Shown: positions 172 to 53,661 of the stretch, piece by piece
Layout of the letters: each line of letters opens with the position of its first letter
Numbering within the stretch: the first letter of the stretch is position 1
Assembly (NCBI GenBank): GCA_005888735.1
Contig: VBBN01000035.1
Coordinates: 11,671 to 75,670, forward strand
Source: Candidatus Bathyarchaeota archaeon
Lineage (GTDB): Archaea > Thermoproteota > Bathyarchaeia > 40CM-2-53-6
DNA length: 64,000 nt
Reading direction: 5' to 3'
Notes under the pieces: generated by a model
The model's input: only the letters and a program-made list of their open reading frames with translations
The model's database searches: none
What the model was told of the DNA's origin: nothing
Program-made: the position numbers and the translations under genes

Positions 172-516
172 ATGCTTGACCCAGTAGTCGTTCCAACGTT
201 GTACTTCGTGGCGGTCGTGCAGCTCATCCTGACCGCAGCGGTTGCCTACTACGCCTTCAAAGTCACAAAGCTAACGGGGTCTTTCAGAGCCTGGACACTG
301 ATAATTTTCGCATTCGCTCTACTAACGGTTAGAAACGTCATATCTCTGGCTTTGACCCTCTCCCTTCCAGCTGACCAGCTGGGAACCCTGATAGAATCAG
401 TCGGGGTCACCACTACACTGGCCAGTCAGCTGGTTAACATTATGGCGAACGTCGCACTATTCCTTGGAATGTTCGGTCTTGTCAAGAGATTCCAAAGCCA
501 GTCCAAGCCTTCCTAG
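172..516 (+). CDS. small hydrophobic membrane protein (hypothetical)
   Basis: 114-aa ORF with three or four long hydrophobic segments. No family recognised. Confidence 0.35.
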   Translation: MLDPVVVPTLYFVAVVQLILTAAVAYYAFKVTKLTGSFRAWTLIIFAFALLTVRNVISLALTLSLPADQLGTLIESVGVTTTLASQLVNIMANVALFLGMFGLVKRFQSQSKPS

Positions 517-3888: not shown

Positions 3889-4356
3889 ATGGTCGTCAAG
3901 ACTGGAACCATTAGGCAAAGACTCCTCATAGCCTCCGTAACACCCAAAGAAGTCTACAGCGCTCTAATCGACCCGAAGAAACACTCAGCATTCACGGGTT
4001 CCAGGGCCACCTGTGACCCTAGGCGTGGTGGAAAGTTCAACGCCTGGGACAAATACATCTCAGGCAAGAACTTAGAGCTGGTCAAAGGCAAGAAGATAGT
4101 TCAGGAATGGAAGACCTCAGAGTGGCCTGAGGACTATCCAAGCTCGATTCTAGAACTCACCTTCACGCGGAAGAAAGGCGGGACGGAGCTGCGAATGGTG
4201 CACTCAAAGGTCCCAGCGAGCCAAGTGGCGAAGTATAGCGAAGGATGGGGAACATCGTACTGGGAGCCTCTCAAAGAATACTTCGGAAGAACAGTGAGGA
4301 TTGAGACAAAACCAAAGTCTCCCAAGAATTGGGAGGAAAATTTCAGCTGCCGGTAA
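3889..4356 (+). CDS. SRPBCC/AHSA1-family (activator of Hsp90 ATPase homolog 1-like) protein
   Basis: 155 aa. Pattern ...IDPKKHSAFTGSRA...GGKF....GKNLELVKGKKIVQEW... is typical of the AHSA1/START-like fold. Confidence 0.6.
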   Translation: MVVKTGTIRQRLLIASVTPKEVYSALIDPKKHSAFTGSRATCDPRRGGKFNAWDKYISGKNLELVKGKKIVQEWKTSEWPEDYPSSILELTFTRKKGGTELRMVHSKVPASQVAKYSEGWGTSYWEPLKEYFGRTVRIETKPKSPKNWEENFSCR

Positions 4357-4568
4357 TCATTCATCTAAGGTCGAGTATTCTATCCCAGAATAGCGTCGAA
4401 CACTATTGTTCCTCTTTTCTCCTTTCTGGATCGTTCTGAGAGCTTCTTCGAGTGCAACGCATATTATTCTCCAGATGTAAGAGGGAGACGGGTCTCGTTA
4501 CATAATCTTCTACTCGACTGTTAATCCAGATTTCTGATTACTGAAGGCTCAAGGGTCTTGGTCAGTGC

Positions 4569-6143
4569 TTGCGAGGATCACGAGGGGTCCTGTTAGCAGT
4601 AACCCTCTTTCTAGGAATCCTGGTTGCGGTGGGCGGCCTCCACAAAGTCAACGCCGCTGGGGAGGGATTCACGCTCACTTCGCTCCCCGCTCGGACCAGC
4701 GAGGGAAACGCCTCTGGCGTCGATCTCACGCTCTCGGTTACTAACGCAGCAAATCCAGGAAGCTACAGTTTTACCTGGACGGTGACAGACCCGTCTGGTG
4801 GGTCGGCGAGTACGACCAAGCCGGTCTTGTCAACCGCTGCAGCGTGGACTGTGGCTGCCAAGTATCCGTCAGACTTCGGCGCATCTCTTAATCTCGTTGG
4901 CTCTTACGATGTGATTATTGCCGAGAACCTCCCCTCGCTAAACTCCAGCATCGCAACAGGACAATTTACAGTCGGGCTAACAGACTACACATCATACCAA
5001 CGGACCTCGACAGTGCATGTAGAGGCCAGCGGGTACCTGCCCGCCGACAACGTGACGATCAACATAGTTTATGGAGCTACCTCTGTCTCTGGCTACCCAT
5101 CGAGTAAAAACGCGGATCCTACGGGGGCCGTCCAGTTTTCTTGGCAGACCGCCGTGGACTCTGCCCTTGGAAACTATACCGTCAGCCTTGCGGGAACGAA
5201 CACCGTCGCCAAAAATCCGGCTGACATTCAACAGGTCATAGTCTATCCGACCAACATCACATTGACGCCTCTGAGGACAGGCAGCATCGTCGTCCAGAGA
5301 ACTGAGACTGTTGATTTTTGGTTCAACGCTACATACCCCAACGGGGCTTTTGTCAACACCGGCTCGGCCCCGCTACGGCTCATGGAGCCGGATGGTGTGA
5401 CTATTCACACTGTCAACGCTATCTATGACCTGTCTTCTGGCACCTATCACGCGGCCTACCCGACGAGCCTCACCCATGCACAAGGAACATGGACAGCTAC
5501 TGTCGCCTCGGCAAGCTTCACTGACGCTTTCGGGAACAGCGGACCCTCCACAGTTCAGCAAACCAGTTTCAGTATCCAACGCGCAACACTGGCTGTTTCG
5601 CTTCTATCGTCCAGCGGAACATATGCCCAAGGCAGTGTCATTCCCCTGTACACCAAGGTCACGGTACCAGGGAACTACAATTTCACGCAGGGAGCAGTTA
5701 GCGCCGTTTTCATAAGCTCCGGACGAACCATCGTAGGACCGATTAGCCTAGTCTACGACCAGTCTCTGGGAAAGTGGACTGGAAGCTACAAGGTCAACAG
5801 GGTAGACCCGACCGGCACGTGGGTCGTGACCATAATCGCGTCAGACAACTACGGCAATATCGGTCAAGGAACCGCCTCTCTTAACGTAGACACTCAGGGG
5901 ACGCAAACCTCAGCGGACTTGGGCTGGGTCGTCTGGCTACTTGTACTTGTAATCGTCGGGCTCGGTTGCGGAATACTCATTTTGAGACGTCGAGGCGTGA
6001 TTCACCGAGAAGTCAAGCTTGACGTTCAAGCCATCAAACAGAAGGCTAACGAAGTGAAGGGCGACGATTTTCTTCAGTCAATCCAAACTCAGCTGAAGAG
6101 GAGAGCTGAGAGAATTGCGGCCGAGAAGGAGAAACGTGACTAG
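4569..6143 (+). CDS. type-I surface protein: signal peptide, beta-rich N-glycosylation-sequon-rich ectodomain, one C-terminal TM helix and a roughly 50-aa basic coiled cytoplasmic tail (paralog of 50752..52311)
   Basis: TTG start. N-terminus MRGSRGVLLAVTLFLGILVAVGG then AAGEG. Many N-x-S/T sequons. TM DLGWVVWLLVLVIVGLGCGILIL followed by RRRG... tail. Clear homology to the 50752 ORF (YSF..VTDPSG...YPSDF...VGLTD.S.Y.RT). Confidence 0.7.
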   Translation: MRGSRGVLLAVTLFLGILVAVGGLHKVNAAGEGFTLTSLPARTSEGNASGVDLTLSVTNAANPGSYSFTWTVTDPSGGSASTTKPVLSTAAAWTVAAKYPSDFGASLNLVGSYDVIIAENLPSLNSSIATGQFTVGLTDYTSYQRTSTVHVEASGYLPADNVTINIVYGATSVSGYPSSKNADPTGAVQFSWQTAVDSALGNYTVSLAGTNTVAKNPADIQQVIVYPTNITLTPLRTGSIVVQRTETVDFWFNATYPNGAFVNTGSAPLRLMEPDGVTIHTVNAIYDLSSGTYHAAYPTSLTHAQGTWTATVASASFTDAFGNSGPSTVQQTSFSIQRATLAVSLLSSSGTYAQGSVIPLYTKVTVPGNYNFTQGAVSAVFISSGRTIVGPISLVYDQSLGKWTGSYKVNRVDPTGTWVVTIIASDNYGNIGQGTASLNVDTQGTQTSADLGWVVWLLVLVIVGLGCGILILRRRGVIHREVKLDVQAIKQKANEVKGDDFLQSIQTQLKRRAERIAAEKEKRD

Positions 6144-6900
6144 AAGCATAGCCGTCCACTCCTACAAAGGGGGCACAGGGAAGACAACCATTACCGCCAA
6201 CGTAGCGGTCGCACTGGCCCTGAAAGGACGGAGAGTTGGAGTGATGGACATGGACCTGGAGGGACCTGGACTCCATGTGTTCTTCGACTTAGACCCAAGC
6301 CAGCTCAGATTCACCGTGAACGATGTTCTCGCGGGCGTCGCGCCTCCGGAAGCCGCTTGCGTCCGGATGAGTGAGAAGATGAATCTGAACGGGGGCGAGA
6401 TCTACTATACGCCCGCCAGCGTCAAAGTCTCCGAGATCATGCGCACCTTGAAGGAGGGTTTCGAGCTCGACACGTTCGAAAACGCCATCAGGAGACTCCA
6501 GGAAAAGTTCGGACTACATTACTTGCTCATAGACACGCACCCAGGCATACAGCACGACACGTTACTCGCGCTGGGAATTTGCGACCACCAAGTCGTAATT
6601 TCACGAGTCGACCAACAGGACATTTTCGGGACAGGAGTACTGGTCGAGATTTCAAGCACGATGGACAAACCCGTCCATCTAATTTTGAACATGATTCCAC
6701 CGCGCATCAGAGAGTCAGAAGTGCTAAAGTTCGCGAGGACCCTTGGAGCGCACTTTACAGTCGACATGGCCGGATGGCTTCCCTTCTCCGAAGAAGTCAT
6801 CGGCTCTCTCAGCAAAGCCATCCTAACATTGAAAATGCCGAGGAATCCGATGAGCCAGCGGTTCCGGGGACTCGCAGAGGCCATTGAGTCCTTCGCCTAG
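6136..6900 (+). CDS. ParA/MinD-family P-loop ATPase (deviant Walker A KGGTGKTT)
   Basis: HSYKGGTGKTTITANVAVALA, MDMDLEGPGL, LLIDTHPG. The likely GTG start at 6136 (MTRSIAVHSYKGG) matches the paralog N-terminus and overlaps the upstream stop by 8 nt. The ORF track starts at 6115. Confidence 0.8.
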   Translation: MTRSIAVHSYKGGTGKTTITANVAVALALKGRRVGVMDMDLEGPGLHVFFDLDPSQLRFTVNDVLAGVAPPEAACVRMSEKMNLNGGEIYYTPASVKVSEIMRTLKEGFELDTFENAIRRLQEKFGLHYLLIDTHPGIQHDTLLALGICDHQVVISRVDQQDIFGTGVLVEISSTMDKPVHLILNMIPPRIRESEVLKFARTLGAHFTVDMAGWLPFSEEVIGSLSKAILTLKMPRNPMSQRFRGLAEAIESFA

Positions 6901-6933: not shown

Positions 6934-7912
6934 CTAGCCGTGTTTTGCTAGAAACCCCAACACTACACTGTTGAGCTCTGCTGGATTCTCAATGTGTGGG
7001 AAGTGGGCACATTCCCCAATCACCGCCACCTCAGCACTCGGGATTGCCCCAGCGAGCCGGTCGACTATCGAATGTAGGACTTTCGGGCTGTTCTCCCCGT
7101 TTACCAGAAGAGTAGGAGCGGATATCTTTGACGCATCCACTTTGCCGAAAGGCGGAACCTCGGCAGTAAGCTCTCCTATCGTCTTCTCGTTCTCTTTCAC
7201 CATCCTTTGAACGGCTTCTGGAAGCTGATCAAAGGCTCCTCTCCGGTTCATGATCCCATCCAGATTGAGTCTTAGAGCGGCGTCGAAAATCGCCACGTTG
7301 GAAAGCAGCTAGTGATGGGTCTAGAGATGTTCGCTGAAACCGCGCAGCAGACATTGCTGTTGAAGGGCTTCTCAGTAAGAGCGAAAGGAGTTGCGGTATG
7401 CTCTTCCGATTCGTCAAGAGTATCGTCGAAACTGCCGGTTCTACAAGCGTGAGCGTGTGGAAAAGTCCAGGGTTCGTTGCAGCACAGTAGGCCGCAGCGA
7501 ACCCTCCATAAGAATGGCCAACAAGATGCACAGGCGAGACATCTAGTTCATGGATCAAGCCAGCAAGATCAGCCGAGTTGTTCTCAATGGTACTGCCTGC
7601 ATAGTCTTCCCGGTTATGGTTCGGGTTCGCCAGGCGTCTACTGTAAGCAATTACGTGATAGTTGGCCGAGAAGAGTCCAACTTGGGCGTCCCATGCGCGG
7701 TAATCCGTAGGAATGCCGTGCACGAAGAACACGGGATCACCTTGCCCCGCTTCTCGATAAGCGAGACTAATCTCGCCAACCTTGGCGATTTTCAAACCTG
7801 AGGACTGCATTAGCCCCGAAAAACGAGTTCTTCCCCAAAAGGTATTCCACAAGAGGACCGCAACTCCCCGGCAAAGTCGTCCCGGCAGCTTGGGCGAAGC
7901 TGATAAGGACAA
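6934..7912 (-). pseudogene. alpha/beta hydrolase, frameshifted (N-terminal part 7229..7912 and C-terminal part 6934..7296 lie in different frames)
   Basis: N-part has HGIPTDYRAW and the nucleophile elbow GHSYGG. C-part has the catalytic His region ECAHFPHIENP. The two ORFs overlap by 68 nt in different frames. Confidence 0.55.
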
Positions 7913-9693: not shown

Positions 9694-12479
9694 GCAAATC
9701 TTACCGTCCGGCTCATCCTAGAAAGGTCCTTTCTCGCGGAGGTAATTGCCGGGAGAAAAACACCGGCGAACAGTAGTCCAACAGTCCCCAGGATAGTTTC
9801 GGTCGCCCAGAGAGGAAAAACAACCCTTCTCTGAGCTAACATGCTCGTGTAGCTAAGGTTAAGGGTGCTTTGGGCCAGAGCATCACCGCGAACTGTAATG
9901 AGACCGACAGCGGTGGCGAGGATTAGCGCAAATATGAGGAGGGGAAGTACCTCGGTGACCAGTAACCCTAGCATTTGCTTGTACGAAAGGCCTCTCACCG
10001 CGATCATAGTCGTCTCCTTCTCGCGTTCCTTAAAGCCGGTATAGGAGACGGCGCCCACCCCAATGCACGCGGCTAACCCGGCGAAGACTGTTCCCAGGCG
10101 GAGAACATTCTGTATCCCGTTGGAAATGGTTCCCGTCGCTCCTTGAGTGCTGACCTCAGCTGTGTCGACACTGACTGATGTGTACGCTTTGCGAATCGAG
10201 CTGGCTAAGTTTGAGAGGGGTATAGCTGAGTCCGCCTTTGCAAGTACCGAGTAGGTGCTGGAGAAGATGGCCGGGTTCTCGACAACGAGGCCGATTGGAA
10301 CGTATGACCATCCCATGGGCGCAAACCCACCGAAGCCTGGAACGCCGAACGAACCGCCAAGGGACCTTTGGGAATAGTCGGGTCCGAAGAGGCTGATAAC
10401 TGAGAGAGCCTTCGTGCTACTGATGTTCACGTAACTTATCCCGTAGTACGACGCAACCCCATGATCAAGCACAATCGTCTGATTGTCCAGTGCCAAGATC
10501 CGGAAGATATCGTCAATGTTTCCGGTGAACCAGCCATCCTCGTAGTATGCCCCCTGCCTCCACGTCAACGGGTCGATGGCTTTCATCTGTAAGTACTGGA
10601 TCCGTGAAAGCTGGAGCGAAGTGGCCCCTTCAACCGTCGCCCCTGTAATATTGCTCCAGGAGCGTAACTGACTGGCGAACATTGACGCATTCGTTAGGGA
10701 GTTGAACCCGGTTATGCGCAGGTCGGAGCCGACTTGGGTCTCGGCTTGTCGGAAGTTGTAGTCTTGCTGGCTGGCCTGGTCGCCGACAACCCAGATCGAG
10801 TACCCCGCGATCAGGGCTACTAGGAAGACGATTGCGCTGACCCTGCGAGGGTTTCGGAAGACATTCTTGGAGGCTAGGGTTGCAACGTCTCCAACCAGCC
10901 TCTTGGAAAGTGAGGCGAATCCCCGGTGAAATCGGAGAGCTAGCCCTGTAGATAGCTGGGTGGCTCCGTATAGGAAGAGGAATGGGCCTATGAAGGTCAG
11001 TCCAAAGTCTGCGACAGCCATGATAATGAGAACAAGTGCGAGCAGGAAGTTGGTGCCGAAAAAGAATCGGCCTATGTTCTGGAAGTTTATTCCGAGGGTT
11101 AGGAGGATTATCTTGTAGAGGCCGAGAGAGAAAGCTAGGATAGCGCCCGTCTTCCTGCTAGAACGTGTGTCTTCTAAGTAGACGTATTCTCTCAAGGCTT
11201 TAGCTGGGTCCATTGAAGCCGCGGCACGGGCAGGCGAGAAAATTGAGAGCAGCGTCAGAATCACTGTGAAGACTATTGTGATGATTGCGGTGTTGCTTGT
11301 GAGGAACACGGCTCCTGGGTTGCTCCCGCTGAGGACCTGGATAAAATAAGGATTCAAGGTCACCGCAGCCGCCAAGCCAAGACCTCCACCTACGAGGCCG
11401 ACGATCAGTGCCTCGACCATGAAGTGTCTGAACAGTTGCGCATTGGAGAAGCCCTTGGTCTTGAGAAGCCCAATCTCCCTCCTCCGCAGGTTGAACGAGG
11501 CTTGGGAAACAGTTCTTCCAACAAGCCAGGCCACAAAGAAAACTGGAAGCGAGAAAATCGTGAATGTGAATCGGAGGAGGAAAATGCTCTGCGAGAAGCT
11601 TGCCAGAGGCCCGGTCAGACTTTCACTTGAGCTGAAATTGTACCGAGCAGCCTCATTTGTAACCTTGGCCTCGATCTGTTGTACTTGGGCAATACTGCCT
11701 TCGATGTTGAACGCGCTTAGAAGCCTCGACCTGTCAAGGTAGACATTTACAGTTGCGGCGATGTTGTACCCACCGCGATTATTGGGAGGAATGGTTTCCT
11801 TGTACTCCCACCGAACTAAGGGAAGGAAGGTCCGCTCCCAACTCACAATAAGAACACTGCTCGGTCTCTGGACAATGTCCGTTCCTCGGAAATTGCTGAC
11901 AAGAGAGCTAACGCCCAAGGTGGCTGAAGCCAAGGTGTCCAGTTTCGCCACCCCTACAATCCTCAGGGTCACATTGTAGCTGTGCCGGTATGAGCCAAAG
12001 CTGTACCCTACCGTTTGACCAAAGGTGTAATTCTGCCCAAACGGTGAGTCCGCGTTAACAAAAGACTCATTGGCCTCAAGTGTCTTTTGACCGTTGACAA
12101 CTGACAGGTGCTTATAGAGAAGAGAACTGTCCTGAATTGCTTTCACCGTGGGAAATGAAGGGTTGAAAATCGGGCCTTGTTGGGGTGCACTCCCGAATAA
12201 CTCCACAGATGCCACCCCATCCACTTGTCCGACCTTTGCGGCAACGTTTTGGAAGGTCTCCGGTGGAACTGGTATCGAGCCTTGCGGGAAACCAGTCGAG
12301 GGGGTGAGTTGCATGTCGACCGGGGTATCGGCTAGTTGGGCATCGAGAGCCTGTTTCCCAATCGTATCGGCTCCGACATTGATTCCACCGAAGAACGTTG
12401 CGGCCAACATCATTCCAAGTATTAGGGACACGAAAAGTTTCCAGGACCGCACGATCCTCTTCAGGGCATAGGACAGCAT
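9690..12479 (-). CDS. ABC transporter permease, FtsX/MacB-like, with large extracytoplasmic domains (929 aa)
   Basis: Two FtsX-type 4-TM modules separated by long soluble domains. Co-oriented with and overlapping the ATPase gene. Confidence 0.75.
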   Translation of the reverse strand: MLSYALKRIVRSWKLFVSLILGMMLAATFFGGINVGADTIGKQALDAQLADTPVDMQLTPSTGFPQGSIPVPPETFQNVAAKVGQVDGVASVELFGSAPQQGPIFNPSFPTVKAIQDSSLLYKHLSVVNGQKTLEANESFVNADSPFGQNYTFGQTVGYSFGSYRHSYNVTLRIVGVAKLDTLASATLGVSSLVSNFRGTDIVQRPSSVLIVSWERTFLPLVRWEYKETIPPNNRGGYNIAATVNVYLDRSRLLSAFNIEGSIAQVQQIEAKVTNEAARYNFSSSESLTGPLASFSQSIFLLRFTFTIFSLPVFFVAWLVGRTVSQASFNLRRREIGLLKTKGFSNAQLFRHFMVEALIVGLVGGGLGLAAAVTLNPYFIQVLSGSNPGAVFLTSNTAIITIVFTVILTLLSIFSPARAAASMDPAKALREYVYLEDTRSSRKTGAILAFSLGLYKIILLTLGINFQNIGRFFFGTNFLLALVLIIMAVADFGLTFIGPFLFLYGATQLSTGLALRFHRGFASLSKRLVGDVATLASKNVFRNPRRVSAIVFLVALIAGYSIWVVGDQASQQDYNFRQAETQVGSDLRITGFNSLTNASMFASQLRSWSNITGATVEGATSLQLSRIQYLQMKAIDPLTWRQGAYYEDGWFTGNIDDIFRILALDNQTIVLDHGVASYYGISYVNISSTKALSVISLFGPDYSQRSLGGSFGVPGFGGFAPMGWSYVPIGLVVENPAIFSSTYSVLAKADSAIPLSNLASSIRKAYTSVSVDTAEVSTQGATGTISNGIQNVLRLGTVFAGLAACIGVGAVSYTGFKEREKETTMIAVRGLSYKQMLGLLVTEVLPLLIFALILATAVGLITVRGDALAQSTLNLSYTSMLAQRRVVFPLWATETILGTVGLLFAGVFLPAITSARKDLSRMSRTVRFA

Positions 12480-50367: not shown

Positions 50368-50483
50368 TAGACCTCCAAAAGCCTTGGACGGTACGCTTAA
50401 TACAGTCAGGCGCTGACCTCTATACGACAAACGGCTGATCGGTGTTGGGAGAAAGGGAGAAGAGGCGTCGAAAAGAAGCACCA

Positions 50484-50621
50484 ATGCCAGCCGCTAGTGC
50501 TGGACTCTTGCGGTTTTTCGAAGAGGACACTCCGGGAGTCAAGCTCAGTCCCCAACTGGTCGTCATATCGGGTATCCTTCTTGTGACCTTCGCCCTGATG
50601 GCCTACTTCCTTCTTCCCTAG
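50484..50621 (+). CDS. secG: preprotein translocase subunit SecG / Sec61-beta (45 aa; not in the ORF track)
   Basis: MPAASAGLLRFFEEDTPGVKLSPQLVVISGILLVTFALMAYFLLP. The AGLxRYF-EE...K..P motif plus a single C-terminal TM is the archaeal Sec61beta pattern. Confidence 0.55.
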   Translation: MPAASAGLLRFFEEDTPGVKLSPQLVVISGILLVTFALMAYFLLP

Positions 50622-50751: not shown

Positions 50752-52311
50752 TTGGGAATACTATCTCGAAAAACAAAAACACTGATTCTCGTTCTGGTCG
50801 CATCATTGTTCCTTGCGGTTGGCCTCGTTCCAGTCCACGCAGCCACTCAGTACGCACTGTCTTTGAACCCCGGGCGAACTCAGGAGCAAAGCTCGCCGGG
50901 TGTGACTGTAACCCTTACTGTTACGGGCGCTAGTAGCGGGCAGCCTTATTCTTTCCTACTTCTGGTCACTGACCCCTCAGGCGCAAAGAGCAACGCAACA
51001 CGTAGCACAATCGCCCCTGGGTCCGCATTTTCCTTTCAGCTGAACTACCCATCAGACTTCTCGCGTGGGTCCATCAAATATGTAGGGCAGTACAACGTTA
51101 ATGTTGCCCAAACTACACCCTCAGTCAGTGCAAGTGTTGCCTCCGGACACCTTGACGTCGGGCTAACAGACAAATCTACGTATGAGAGAACTTATCCAGT
51201 CTCGATAAAGGCAGATGCGTATTCTTCGAACGAAACGGTGAGGATTGACATTACACATGCTTCATTATCAGCGCCCGACTTTCCGGCCTTCGTCAACGCA
51301 GACCCATCTGGCAATGTTTTCTTCTCCTGGCTAACGACCCCGGATCTTCCAATAGGAAACTACAATGTAACTATAACTGGGGGTTCCACTGTAAAGGCGG
51401 TCCGTGACTCTCAAAGCTTCCTGCTCGACCTGACGGGCGTTACGATCCGCGGGATCAATGTCGCGCAGAGTTCGCTTATGCGAAGCCAGACTGCTCGGTT
51501 CAGTTTCTCCGCCGACTATCTTGGAGGCGGACCCGTGCAGAGCGGATTCGCGACTCTACTCGTGACTCAACCGGATTTCACGATTCAGCAAGTCCCTGCA
51601 ACGTACAACGCGACGAGCGCCCGGTTCGAGGCCGGCTATCGGATACCTCTGGTGAGCATGAACGGATCCTGGACTGCCTTGGTGAAAGCAAACAGCCTGC
51701 AGGATTCGTACGGGAATAGCGGGCCCGACAGTAGTCCTTCTGCGGATTTCATCGTCACACCGGCGTCTCTAAGTGTCGATTTGAACTTCACCAGGGGTGA
51801 TATTGTGATCGGCAACGTTGTAGCTATTTACTCGAACATCACGACTCCAGACGGAAGCAGTTTCGCGGCGGGAACAGTATCAGCCTTCGTCTCCCCTCCT
51901 GGACGCCCCATTGGAAACCAGGTTAACCTTCTCTATGACAGCAGCCAACGAAAATGGGTCGGCAGTTACACTGTGTCCACTAACGACCCATCCGGGGTCT
52001 GGCTAGTCAAGGTATCAGCTTCTGACCCCTATGGTAATTCGGGTTCGGGTTCCACATCGTCAATCGTAACCGTTGTTGCTCCAGTCAGTCAAGGGTCGAC
52101 TCTTACACTTTGGTTCTTGACAGCTTTCGGGGCTATCGCAGCCGGCCTCTTGGTCGGGCTCTTCTTGTTGAGAAGGAAACGGACTTTTCAGCACCACCTG
52201 CAGGTTGACCTTCAAGCAGTCAGCGAGGAGGCTAGCAAGGTCAAGAATCAAGAGTTCTTCCAGTCTATCAAGGAACAGATAGAAAAGCAGAGAGAGGGCA
52301 AAGGTTCCTAG
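50752..52311 (+). CDS. type-I surface protein, paralog of 4569..6143 (signal peptide, sequon-rich ectodomain, TM, conserved basic cytoplasmic tail)
   Basis: TTG start. ILVLVASLFLAVGLVPVHA signal peptide. Ectodomain blocks shared with the paralog. TM LWFLTAFGAIAAGLLVGLFLL then the RRKR... tail. Confidence 0.7.
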   Translation: MGILSRKTKTLILVLVASLFLAVGLVPVHAATQYALSLNPGRTQEQSSPGVTVTLTVTGASSGQPYSFLLLVTDPSGAKSNATRSTIAPGSAFSFQLNYPSDFSRGSIKYVGQYNVNVAQTTPSVSASVASGHLDVGLTDKSTYERTYPVSIKADAYSSNETVRIDITHASLSAPDFPAFVNADPSGNVFFSWLTTPDLPIGNYNVTITGGSTVKAVRDSQSFLLDLTGVTIRGINVAQSSLMRSQTARFSFSADYLGGGPVQSGFATLLVTQPDFTIQQVPATYNATSARFEAGYRIPLVSMNGSWTALVKANSLQDSYGNSGPDSSPSADFIVTPASLSVDLNFTRGDIVIGNVVAIYSNITTPDGSSFAAGTVSAFVSPPGRPIGNQVNLLYDSSQRKWVGSYTVSTNDPSGVWLVKVSASDPYGNSGSGSTSSIVTVVAPVSQGSTLTLWFLTAFGAIAAGLLVGLFLLRRKRTFQHHLQVDLQAVSEEASKVKNQEFFQSIKEQIEKQREGKGS

Positions 52312-53088: not shown

Positions 53089-53661
53089 ATGTCAGGTTCA
53101 CCAGGAAGGTTCTCTACTAACAGCCTGAGACGCCTGATAACTTCCATGAACTCCATCCGGTTCCGCGACGAATCTGGAGAGATTGAGTACTTCGGGCAAA
53201 AGGTCGTCCTGTTGAGACGAGACGTTTTTGGGCTCATACGAGGAGAACTTTCACGGGTAGCCGGACCCGCAGCAAACGTCATCATCAGCCTAGCGGGCCG
53301 AAAAGTCGGAACGGAAGAGGGACAAGCACTCGCACTCAAGGCCGAGGCCCTGGGATTGAACGGGCCACAGGCGTTTCCTGACTTCCTCAAAACAGCGGTT
53401 GAAGAGACTAATATGGGAATAGGAAAGATCAGAGTGTCTGATCTTGACCTTCAAAACGGTAGGGTCGATATCACGGTCGTGAACGGGTTCGAATCGGATC
53501 GTCCAGGCGGCTCGTTGAAACCCACCTGCTTCTTCACACTCGGGTACTTAGAGGGAATATTTTCCAAGCTGACTGGCAAGGAGCTTCGCGGACGTGAAGT
53601 GGCCTGCAACGCAAAAGGTGACACACTCTGCCGGTTCTCCCTAAACATGTCGGCTCAGTAG
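53089..53661 (+). CDS. V4R (vinyl-4-reductase-like) domain protein
   Basis: C-terminal CFFTLGYLEGIFSKLTGKELRGREVACNAKGDTLCRFS matches the V4R Cys/Gly pattern (C..G...G......E..C...GD..C.F). Confidence 0.5.
   Translation: MSGSPGRFSTNSLRRLITSMNSIRFRDESGEIEYFGQKVVLLRRDVFGLIRGELSRVAGPAANVIISLAGRKVGTEEGQALALKAEALGLNGPQAFPDFLKTAVEETNMGIGKIRVSDLDLQNGRVDITVVNGFESDRPGGSLKPTCFFTLGYLEGIFSKLTGKELRGREVACNAKGDTLCRFSLNMSAQ

Follow-up and report, generated by a model that had tools for sequence, protein, structure and literature searches.

A conserved cytoplasmic tail of Bathyarchaeia surface proteins as a candidate docking motif for an adjacent MinD-type ATPase

Why does a cell-surface protein of an uncultured archaeon end in a conserved cytoplasmic tail, and why is its gene followed directly by one for an ATPase of the ParA/MinD type? 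The question is raised by 64,000 nucleotides of Candidatus Bathyarchaeota archaeon (assembly GCA_005888735.1, contig VBBN01000035.1, positions 11,671 to 75,670 of the forward strand; the whole stretch is called the window below), where such a gene pair is found twice, as copies A and B. The spatial organisation of prokaryotic cells is chiefly the work of ParA/MinD ATPases, and Bathyarchaeia are one of the most abundant uncultured archaeal groups. Comparison of the gene and protein sequences suggests that the tail is probably a short motif on which the MinD-type ATPase of the next gene docks. Because the tail is nearly always encoded directly before the ATPase gene, it is most likely the handle by which this ATPase grips the membrane protein.

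The tail and the gene that follows it

The anatomy of copy A agrees with the original prediction, which had been made from the letters of the window alone. A 524-aa protein with a signal peptide, a beta-rich ectodomain and a single transmembrane (TM) helix was recovered from the open reading frame (ORF), hydropathy (exactly two hydrophobic segments, one at the N-terminus and one around the TM helix) and an AlphaFold2 (AF2) model, and the helix is followed by a short basic tail, RRRGVIHREVKLD...KRRAERIAAEKEKRD (Table 1). An ATPase gene with the predicted deviant Walker A motif, here HSYKGGTGKT, follows, and 8 nt are common to its GTG start at 6136 and the TAG stop of the surface gene at 6141-6143. 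The pair was also correctly said to recur at a second site, where the prediction left out a third gene, encoding a V4R-domain protein. Between the two copies, identity is 36% for the surface proteins (E 1e-100) and 55% for the ATPases; in copy B a gap of 1 nt lies between the surface-gene stop and the ATPase start. A search for homologues of the surface protein returned 88. Cassettes fall into types A, B and C, the window holding the first two.

No other 33-aa window of the family is as conserved as the core of the tail (aa 480-512), which has a pairwise identity of 0.71 vs 0.50 for the ectodomain and rank 1 of 492 in an alignment of 69 family members, 59 of which are of type A by a rough grouping on the tail motif. 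D485, A493, F501 and Q508 are invariant in this alignment, and the motif has the skeleton L-K-x-D-L-x-A-V-x-x-E-A-x-x-V-x(4)-F-F-x-S-I-x-x-Q-L. Within type A the tail is 81% identical vs 54% for the ectodomain, and within type C 94% vs 51%, so that conservation across orthologues, on which the prediction depended, was found. Between types, the tail is 35-48% and the ectodomain 32-42% identical. Tails that are alike within a type and have diverged between types form the pattern expected of a specificity-determining docking peptide. The argument that had been drawn from the two copies of the window fared less well. Identity over roughly a third of the tail positions was confirmed (11/33 = 33% of the core), but the tails are not more alike than the ectodomains, which are 38% identical, and the tail ranks only 277 of 462 windows in this comparison. 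The proposal that the tail is a recognition element for the ATPase therefore loses the evidence first cited for it and is carried instead by the comparative tests.

Selection on the tail acts on the protein and not on the DNA, because synonymous codons vary freely at the conserved residues (4-6 codons each at the conserved Ala, Ser and Leu positions). The last 12 residues, where the Shine-Dalgarno-like GGAG of the ATPase ribosome-binding site lies, are the least conserved part of the tail. These two findings ruled out that the conservation is a by-product of the ribosome-binding site or of the gene overlap. The conserved residues are spaced i/i+3/i+4, which is typical of an amphipathic helix. 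In the AF2 model of the copy A surface protein, built from 69 family members with a predicted local distance difference test score (pLDDT) of 86, the tail has a pLDDT of 43-58 and a helix at 502-518; such low confidence is usual for peptides that fold on binding.

A hidden Markov model (HMM) of the tail matches copy A at 5994..6113 (76.6 bits) and copy B at 52183..52296 (54.8 bits). In 1.84 billion proteins, the tail profile found 59 representatives at E <= 0.001. Genuine single-stretch matches have the motif at the C-terminus or at most about 20 residues from it, and three weak multi-stretch matches resemble coiled-coil or repeat proteins. This exhaustive search brought up no architecture beyond the surface family: the matches inspected were family members or fragments of them, and the tails of the kinases described below fell under its threshold. 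Only truncated gene calls were returned by a word-indexed protein search with the profile. As for known Pfam families, DUF6232 matches copy B only and DUF4381 is sub-threshold, and both were treated as spurious because neither is common to types A, B, C and the kinases.

The linkage between tail and ATPase was surveyed from both sides. One genome per GTDB species was scanned with tail peptides as search patterns, and in all 22 loci retrieved the ATPase gene lies directly after the tail-bearing surface gene, followed in 19 of them by a V4R gene. From the ATPase side, 80 metagenomic loci were fetched by ATPase alignment. Across all fetched sequence (14,734 ORF segments), 80 of 81 tail-HMM matches are immediately upstream of an ATPase gene. 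Conservation of the ATPase neighbour in related genomes, another point raised by the prediction, is thus confirmed. The junctions are close, as in locus L007 (7971..10370, 10367..11152 and 11142..11966). With junctions of -8, -4 or +1 nt in the window and in other loci, the surface gene and the ATPase gene are probably co-translated.

All fetched loci (L001-L110) and the window together supplied 105 ATPases complete enough for clustering. Clade C (n = 49) has a tail ORF upstream in 46/48 cases and a V4R gene downstream in 47/47. For clade B, which includes copy B (n = 23), the counts are 18/22 and 17/22, and for clade A, which includes copy A (n = 9), 9/9 and 0/8; type-A ATPases of other genomes are 70-83% identical. 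A kinase-linked clade (n = 3) has the tail in 3/3 and V4R in 0/3 cases. Two ATPases were unassigned (L080, L110), with one tail ORF and one V4R gene between them (1/2 each). In an orphan clade of about 274 aa (n = 19), neither gene was found (0/18 and 0/18); its members have a short Pro/Gly/Ser-rich C-terminal extension (in L062, L066, L087, L103 and 15 more loci, with the ATPase at about 3990-4820). Per genome there are two to three paralogous cassettes, each tied to a tail-bearing partner, and the tail variant tracks the ATPase clade. All four partnered clades have H8, S95, E110, T134 and T166 of the ATPase without exception, and the orphan clade has other residues in their place; by inference, these residues could be candidates for a docking surface.

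Several observations were made on individual loci. The 5' neighbours of type-C cassettes (L007:5888-7273, with equivalents in L004, L006 and L008-L020) are a KaiC-like ATPase of 298 aa and a protein of 151 aa that has Zn-ribbon-like motifs (CxxC...CxxxxC) and falls into no Pfam family. This order may only reflect recent common ancestry, because the metagenome-assembled genomes (MAGs) are closely related. In L081 and L084, where the surface gene is missing, a Zn-ribbon gene stands directly before the ATPase-V4R pair. The orphan ATPase of L062 has a GvpD/KaiC-like ATPase about 660 nt upstream.

Kinase partners, fused ATPase domains and lost surface genes

The tail is not confined to the surface family. 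In three loci (L100, L105, L108) a histidine kinase with HisKA and HATPase_c domains is encoded upstream of the sister-clade ATPase and has the same motif at its C-terminus (..DAIKYEAGKVTESEFFKSLRRQLATK; ..IELHPTLIDAIKYEAGKVTESEFFKSLRRQLATK), preceded by a long coiled-coil-like stretch. The kinase stop overlaps the ATPase start in L100 and L108; in L105 the overlap is with the longest ATPase ORF, which opens at a TTG (3947) some 40 nt before the start inferred from homology. No N-terminal hydrophobic segment was apparent in the kinases by eye, which is a judgement made without TM prediction. Thus, the tail travels with the ATPase onto an unrelated protein without an obvious TM segment. Gas-vesicle genes (gvpA/J-like, gvpK and gvpF/L) lie directly downstream of the kinase-ATPase pairs, to about +3 kb, and the pairs may have a regulatory or positioning link to gas vesicles.

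The tail is present in 85 of the 88 surface homologues, one of which is split by a frameshift. In the remaining three (P0083, P0084, P0088), a KaiC-like P-loop ATPase domain is fused directly after the TM helix, and no MinD-type gene is found downstream of them. None of the 88 family members is without both the tail and a fused ATPase domain. Because the motif recurs on kinases and is absent where a KaiC-like ATPase domain is fused, the recognition-element reading is strengthened. KaiC- or GvpD-like genes recur near cassette loci, and in L028 a normal three-gene cassette lies just upstream of the fusion paralogue. In L003:7887-9513 (MAG DASRSU01), the type-A surface gene is frameshifted into ORFs of 421 and 154 aa (P0070 is a truncated call), with tail and ATPase intact.

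The same observations bear on another explanation, in which the tail is a self-association or structural element, for instance a coiled coil of an S-layer-like lattice, and the ATPase is merely a co-regulated neighbour with an unrelated job. The i/i+3/i+4 spacing, the coiled-coil-like stretch before the motif in the kinases, the archaeal S-layer protein that is the best structural match of the ectodomain, and the existence of ATPase-V4R pairs without a surface gene would all agree with it. However, the motif hardly occurs anywhere but directly upstream of this ATPase family (80/81), and it is borne by two unrelated types of protein. It is missing from precisely those surface proteins that have another ATPase domain fused, and its variants follow the ATPase clades. 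One would not expect a purely structural element to keep to one specific ATPase in this way. We therefore regard the structural explanation as unlikely.

A number of points weigh against a docking tail. The surface gene is missing and the ATPase-V4R pair kept in L024, L039, L043, L081 and L084. In the first three of these loci the order SHMT-Sec61beta-[ ]-ATPase-V4R is conserved and the surface gene is absent from the bracket. In L024:5515-6000 there is a surface-gene remnant of about 50 codons, with the signal peptide and the first conserved motif, which looks like a recent deletion; a metallo-beta-lactamase gene follows V4R there. Since the pair persists without the surface gene, the role of the ATPase is not strictly dependent on the surface protein. 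A single tail-bearing protein, that of L080, is without an ATPase gene immediately 3' of it. The tail also served as bait in the genome scan, and sampling was skewed: many of the type-C loci belong to soil MAGs that are close relatives, and 18 fetched loci share one identical tail peptide. In a mirror-tree test, ATPase distances correlated with the ectodomain (partial correlation 0.51) about as well as with the tail (0.53), and therefore co-divergence does not single out the tail. Adjacency and co-conservation could also reflect any shared function and not direct contact.

The ATPase, its operon partners and their surroundings

The deviant Walker A motif of the ATPase is HS[FY]KGGTGK[ST]. Among 39 and among 57 aligned members, its K11, G12, G13, G15 and K16 never vary, and D38, D40 and the Walker B residue D133 (in DTHPG) are invariant among the aligned ATPases. 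K11, K16, D38 and D40 presumably carry the same numbers in E. coli MinD. A deviant Walker A motif is defined as KGGxxK[ST] with a signature lysine (PMC11407121). An AF2 model of the copy B ATPase was obtained with a pLDDT of 88. Foldseek returned a MinD/ParA fold with A. fulgidus MinD (1hyq) as the nearest structure (template modelling score, TM-score, 0.84/0.91); further matches were Aquifex and E. coli MinD, FleN/FlhG, Soj, McdA, BcsQ and ParA, with TM-scores of 0.75-0.82 for E. coli MinD, FlhG, Soj and McdA. Among solved structures, Aquifex MinD comes nearest in sequence (E 6e-15), and identity to MinD is 22-25%.

No curated family accommodates these ATPases. Pfam gives generic ParA, CbiA, AAA_31 and MipZ matches with PF10609 'ParA' on top (58-70 bits), and every curated NCBIfam model scores below its cut-off. 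MinD proper was rejected at 76 bits vs 201.75 for minD_arch (TIGR01969) and 66-69 vs 212.9 for minD_bact (TIGR01968). No minC or minE gene flanks either copy or the related loci, where the genes next door are those for the surface and V4R proteins. Nearest to acceptance is the KGGVGR-motif variant AAA ATPase model (NF047398; 80-86 bits, just under 90), whose motif is replaced by KGGTGK[ST]. Fe-S carriers of the Mrp/NBP35/ApbC group score 36-60 bits with the ApbC and MrpORP models vs cut-offs of 348-450, and the Mrp/NBP35 type is excluded because the ATPase has a single invariant Cys (C149) and no CxxC. PADLOC, which was run for defence systems, yielded only partial P-loop matches to one candidate family. 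The last helix of the fold spans residues 238-251 of 254, and most members end 2-3 residues later; therefore, there is no appended membrane-targeting segment. No C-terminal matrix-binding element was recognised either, as judged from the chain end without analysis of the hydrophobic moment or of a DNA-binding surface.

Homologues that have a source name are from Candidatus Bathyarchaeia. Two close ATPase homologues, 62-70% identical to copy B (P0111, P0155), carry the NCBI label 'Candidatus Binatus sp.', a bacterium. The gene upstream of P0111 (L026, L027) encodes a typical tail-bearing surface protein of this archaeal family, and mis-binning of both is likely because the contigs are only about 3 kb long.

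Could the ATPase be a chromosome or plasmid partition ParA that stands beside a membrane-protein gene by chance? The generic ParA, CbiA and MipZ matches and the presence of Soj and ParA among the fold matches would suit this explanation, to which we give hardly any credence. The ParA_partition model (NF041546) scores 44-52 bits vs 180, the RepA and SopA models are far below their cut-offs, and two to three paralogous cassettes occur per genome, each with its tail-bearing partner. In line with the original prediction, no ParB or other partition gene flanks copy A or copy B, parS sites not having been searched for. The genes that do flank the cassettes are metabolic and others: an FMN-dependent dehydrogenase, an AHSA1-like protein, alpha/beta hydrolases, SHMT, Sec61beta and a metallo-beta-lactamase-fold protein. 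The window looks like ordinary chromosome: its base composition is even (GC 0.50-0.55), and it was scanned for Rfam families and tRNAs without a match.

The ATPase might also be a biogenesis factor, that is, a targeting or insertion ATPase of the SIMIBI class (compare Get3/ArsA, SRP and FlhF) that recognises the C-terminal TM helix together with the tail. It belongs to the same P-loop class and has weak ArsA/GET3 matches, the motif adjoins the only TM helix at the C-terminus, as in the Get3/ArsA (TRC40) systems where the only TM helix of the client is near its C-terminus, and the genes are translationally coupled. However, the surface proteins are not tail-anchored clients, because they have ordinary N-terminal signal peptides and type I topology, with large ectodomains, and what is conserved is the soluble tail and not the TM helix. 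The kinase partners have no N-terminal hydrophobic segment by eye. The Get3/ArsA/TRC40 models give 17-19 bits vs cut-offs of at least 135 (TIGR00345, 19 vs 135), and the fold matches MinD, not Get3. A biogenesis role is thus very unlikely.

The V4R gene is the third member of the operon in types B and C, and type A is without it. Its product exceeds the gathering score of V4R (PF02830; 52.3 bits vs 31) and also matches XylR_N, MsvR and MobR weakly. At least 90% of 65 homologues keep C146, E170, C173 and C181, and an N-terminal block, LRRL..S.N..RF.D..GE...FGQK...LRRD, is conserved in the same set. The 24/3/8 spacing of the four residues matches what we take to be the zinc site of the phenol sensors MopR and PoxR. 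The protein resembles the effector domains of MopR, PoxR and DmpR and the C-terminal domain of MsvR in its V4R match and its Cys-Glu-Cys-Cys set; unlike these sensors, it has no AAA+, HTH or other output domain and shares an operon with a MinD-type ATPase.

The ectodomain appears to be a generic array. Pfam finds MG2 (PF01835) in copy A (38.9 bits vs a cut-off of 32.8) and has it precomputed for most homologues; copy B has no MG2 match at E <= 0.01, and MG2 is to be read as a domain-level assignment. Copy B has a signal peptide, and its four beta-sandwich domains are inferred from homology with A. The top Foldseek match of the copy A model is the H. volcanii S-layer protein csg (7ptp; E 8e-14), followed by the macroglobulin-domain (MG) arrays of complement C3/C5 and CD109. 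TM-scores to 7ptp and these arrays are only about 0.2, so the resemblance is at the level of domains, as strings of beta-sandwiches. Unlike macroglobulins, the surface protein has no thioester or bait region. Unlike csg, it is anchored by a TM helix with a conserved cytoplasmic tail. In Haloferax, csg is lipid-anchored through an archaeosortase signal. Archaeal S-layer proteins are very abundant and make up the 2-D lattice of the cell surface, and a preprint has predicted such proteins for Bathyarchaeia. The description of the ectodomain as full of N-x-S/T sequons did not hold: each ectodomain has 7, and its composition alone would give 5.9 and 5.0 (P = 0.38 and 0.21).

Two gene starts in the window needed a decision. 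For the type-A ATPase, GTG 6136 was preferred over an upstream TTG at 6115 because aligned homologues begin MTRSIAVHS. The public call for the copy A surface protein (P0001, 504 aa) uses a GTG 20 codons downstream, by which most of the signal peptide is lost (4569..4631); the longer ORF from the TTG at 4569 was favoured because the homologue alignment supports it. On the 3' side of cassette A, an alpha/beta-hydrolase gene (6934..7912, minus strand) consists of two overlapping ORFs, 7229..7912 for the N-terminal part and 6934..7296 for the C-terminal part. It is probably a frameshift, from a pseudogene or an assembly error.

Table 1. Positions of the cassette genes, protein segments and variant partners; window positions are without prefix, other loci with theirs.
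Feature	Position	Strand	Basis or remark
Surface protein, cassette type A, 524 aa	4569..6143	+	TTG start; ORF, hydropathy, AF2, Pfam
Signal peptide, copy A	aa 1-29, 4569..4655	+	hydropathy
Four beta-sandwich (immunoglobulin (Ig)/MG-like) domains, copy A	aa ~30-137, 140-226, 240-337, 340-441	+	AF2
TM helix, copy A	aa 452-473, 5922..5987	+	AF2; hydrophobic segment ~aa 445-478 by hydropathy
Cytoplasmic tail, copy A	aa 474-524, 5988..6140	+	hydropathy, AF2
Conserved tail core, copy A, REVKLDVQAIKQKANEVKGDDFLQSIQTQLKRR	aa 480-512, 6006..6104	+	family alignment
MinD/ParA-type ATPase, type A, 254 aa from GTG 6136	6136..6900	+	ORF, Pfam, homologue alignment
Small Sec61beta gene between SHMT and cassette B	50445..50621	+	side observation
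Surface protein, cassette type B, 519 aa	50752..52311	+	ORF, hydropathy, homology to copy A
TM helix, copy B	~aa 449-474, 52096..52173	+	hydropathy
Tail, copy B	aa 475-519, 52174..52308	+	hydropathy; tail HMM
MinD/ParA-type ATPase, type B, 254 aa	52313..53077	+	ORF, Pfam, AF2
V4R-domain protein, 190 aa, XylR_N-like N-terminal half and V4R	53089..53661	+	Pfam V4R
Tail-bearing histidine kinases	L100:2250-4765, L105:1947-4753, L108:794-3276		motif at C-terminus
KaiC-fusion paralogues	L028:4629-6830, L029:1507-3663, L030:974-2869		receptor-kinase-like architecture

Possible roles and relation to known systems

The comparisons give the docking step good support; physical binding, its stoichiometry, recruitment to the membrane and the cellular outcome, positioning or signalling, are what we infer from the sequences. 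Given a docking tail, the following mechanism can be imagined. The ATPase has the full ParA/MinD catalytic set and no membrane helix, and its only way to the membrane would be the tail of its partner. ATP-driven sandwich dimerisation is the general mechanism of the ParA/MinD family, and here it would bring two tails together, so that the nucleotide state of the ATPase would be coupled to how the single-pass surface proteins pair, cluster or are placed. The coupling may also run in reverse, with tail pairing driven by the ectodomains promoting dimerisation of the ATPase. In types B and C, the V4R protein of the same operon probably regulates the ATPase cycle or is its output. Each cassette (A, B, C) has its own tail variant and its own ATPase clade, by which the pairs would stay insulated from one another. 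Taken this far, we tentatively suggest as a possibility an archaeal adaptor system, in which a portable C-terminal peptide of about 30 residues plugs surface and sensor proteins into insulated MinD-type ATPases, with a ligand-binding V4R protein as a third subunit and the ATPase acting as a cargo-tethered, nucleotide-controlled dimeriser of single-pass receptors.

The positioning or anchoring of a surface protein, proposed originally, is only one of several outcomes, and the kinases, the V4R protein and the KaiC fusions point at least equally to signalling or regulation. By analogy, spatial organisation is favoured by the precedents among ParA/MinD ATPases (PMC11407121, PMC10241942, PMC11588486). 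The other purpose would be that of a signalling module: the surface protein would be a single-pass receptor whose ectodomains, paired by a ligand, bring the tails together and switch the MinD-type ATPase, or the fused KaiC-like autokinase domain, on or off, with V4R as co-sensor or output. It shares the docking of tail and ATPase with the explanation that we prefer and differs in its purpose, signalling instead of spatial organisation. The same tail is found on histidine kinases beside a sister ATPase clade, the V4R gene of the operon keeps C146, E170, C173 and C181, the KaiC-like domains fused behind the TM helix make a receptor-kinase-like protein, and KaiC-/GvpD-like genes are found repeatedly near the loci. 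However, the cassette encodes no DNA-binding or enzymatic output domain, type A does without V4R (0/8), and the ectodomain is a generic Ig/MG string with no recognisable ligand-binding domain. Nor are we aware of a case in which a ParA/MinD ATPase serves a single-pass receptor as its transducer. Signalling as the purpose of the module is thus conceivable and, in our opinion, rather doubtful.

Among known systems, the Min system, together with archaeal MinD homologues such as those of A. fulgidus and P. furiosus, is alike in the fold (TM-score 0.80 to Aquifex and E. coli MinD, in addition to the A. fulgidus value above), in the deviant Walker A motif, and in the binding of a short helical partner peptide (MinE 12-31, PDB 3r9i) to the ATP dimer, the kind of contact proposed here. 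In H. volcanii, MinD4 and MinD2 position membrane machineries (PMC11588486; bioRxiv 10.1101/2020.04.03.021790). Unlike Min proteins, the ATPases described here are far below both MinD cut-offs, have no C-terminal membrane-targeting segment, MinC or MinE, and have been named so far only from Bathyarchaeia; their proposed peptide partner comes from the gene upstream, as the C-terminal tail of a surface protein that spans the membrane once.

A second comparison is with PpfA-TlpT, ParC-ParP, FlhG/FleN, BcsQ-BcsR, TadZ/CpaE and McdA-McdB, in which the ATPase gene is also beside the gene of a cargo or adaptor. In ParA/MinD ATPases that position cargo, a short partner peptide contacts the ATPase, and several such ATPases coexist per cell, each with its own cargo (PMC11407121, PMC10241942). 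The known partner peptides are mostly N-terminal (PMC11407121), whereas the Bathyarchaeia peptide is C-terminal. Its bearers, an Ig-domain type I surface protein and a histidine kinase, are not named as partner types in the same review (PMC11407121). The Bathyarchaeia ATPase also differs in having no evident matrix-binding element, either a membrane-targeting helix or an obvious DNA-binding extension, and the V4R component has no counterpart in those systems. The Dip divisome-positioning system (PMC13228585) is GTPase-based and unrelated. The original prediction had matched the arrangement to no described system, and the literature that we searched (MinD with V4R, neighbourhoods of archaeal ParA/MinD genes, Bathyarchaeia envelope proteins, gas vesicles with MinD) holds no such arrangement either.

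The principle of a ParA/MinD ATPase with an adjacent peptide-bearing partner is already known from MinD-MinE, ParA-ParB, McdA-McdB, PpfA-TlpT and FlhG. What would be new, as far as the sequences indicate, is a C-terminal peptide on an Ig-domain surface protein or a kinase, the lack of an evident matrix-binding element, V4R as a third member, several insulated cassettes per genome, and an ATPase below every curated threshold. Archaeal ParA/MinD ATPases with a known cargo are very few; the characterised examples that we found are MinD2 and MinD4 of Haloferax. The cassettes therefore offer a candidate cargo-ATPase pair with a defined 30-residue peptide, invariant residues and natural specificity variants (A, B, C and the kinase type). 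Should docking by the tail be true, it would show that ParA/MinD ATPases can reach the membrane via the tail of a cargo instead of an amphipathic helix of their own, and that a single peptide can join unrelated proteins to ATPases of this class. With the V4R partner and the KaiC-fusion paralogues, three archaeal protein families that are poorly understood would then be linked in one system. If the adaptor system proposed above is true, it would represent a new form of cell-surface patterning in archaea or a new type of transmembrane signalling.

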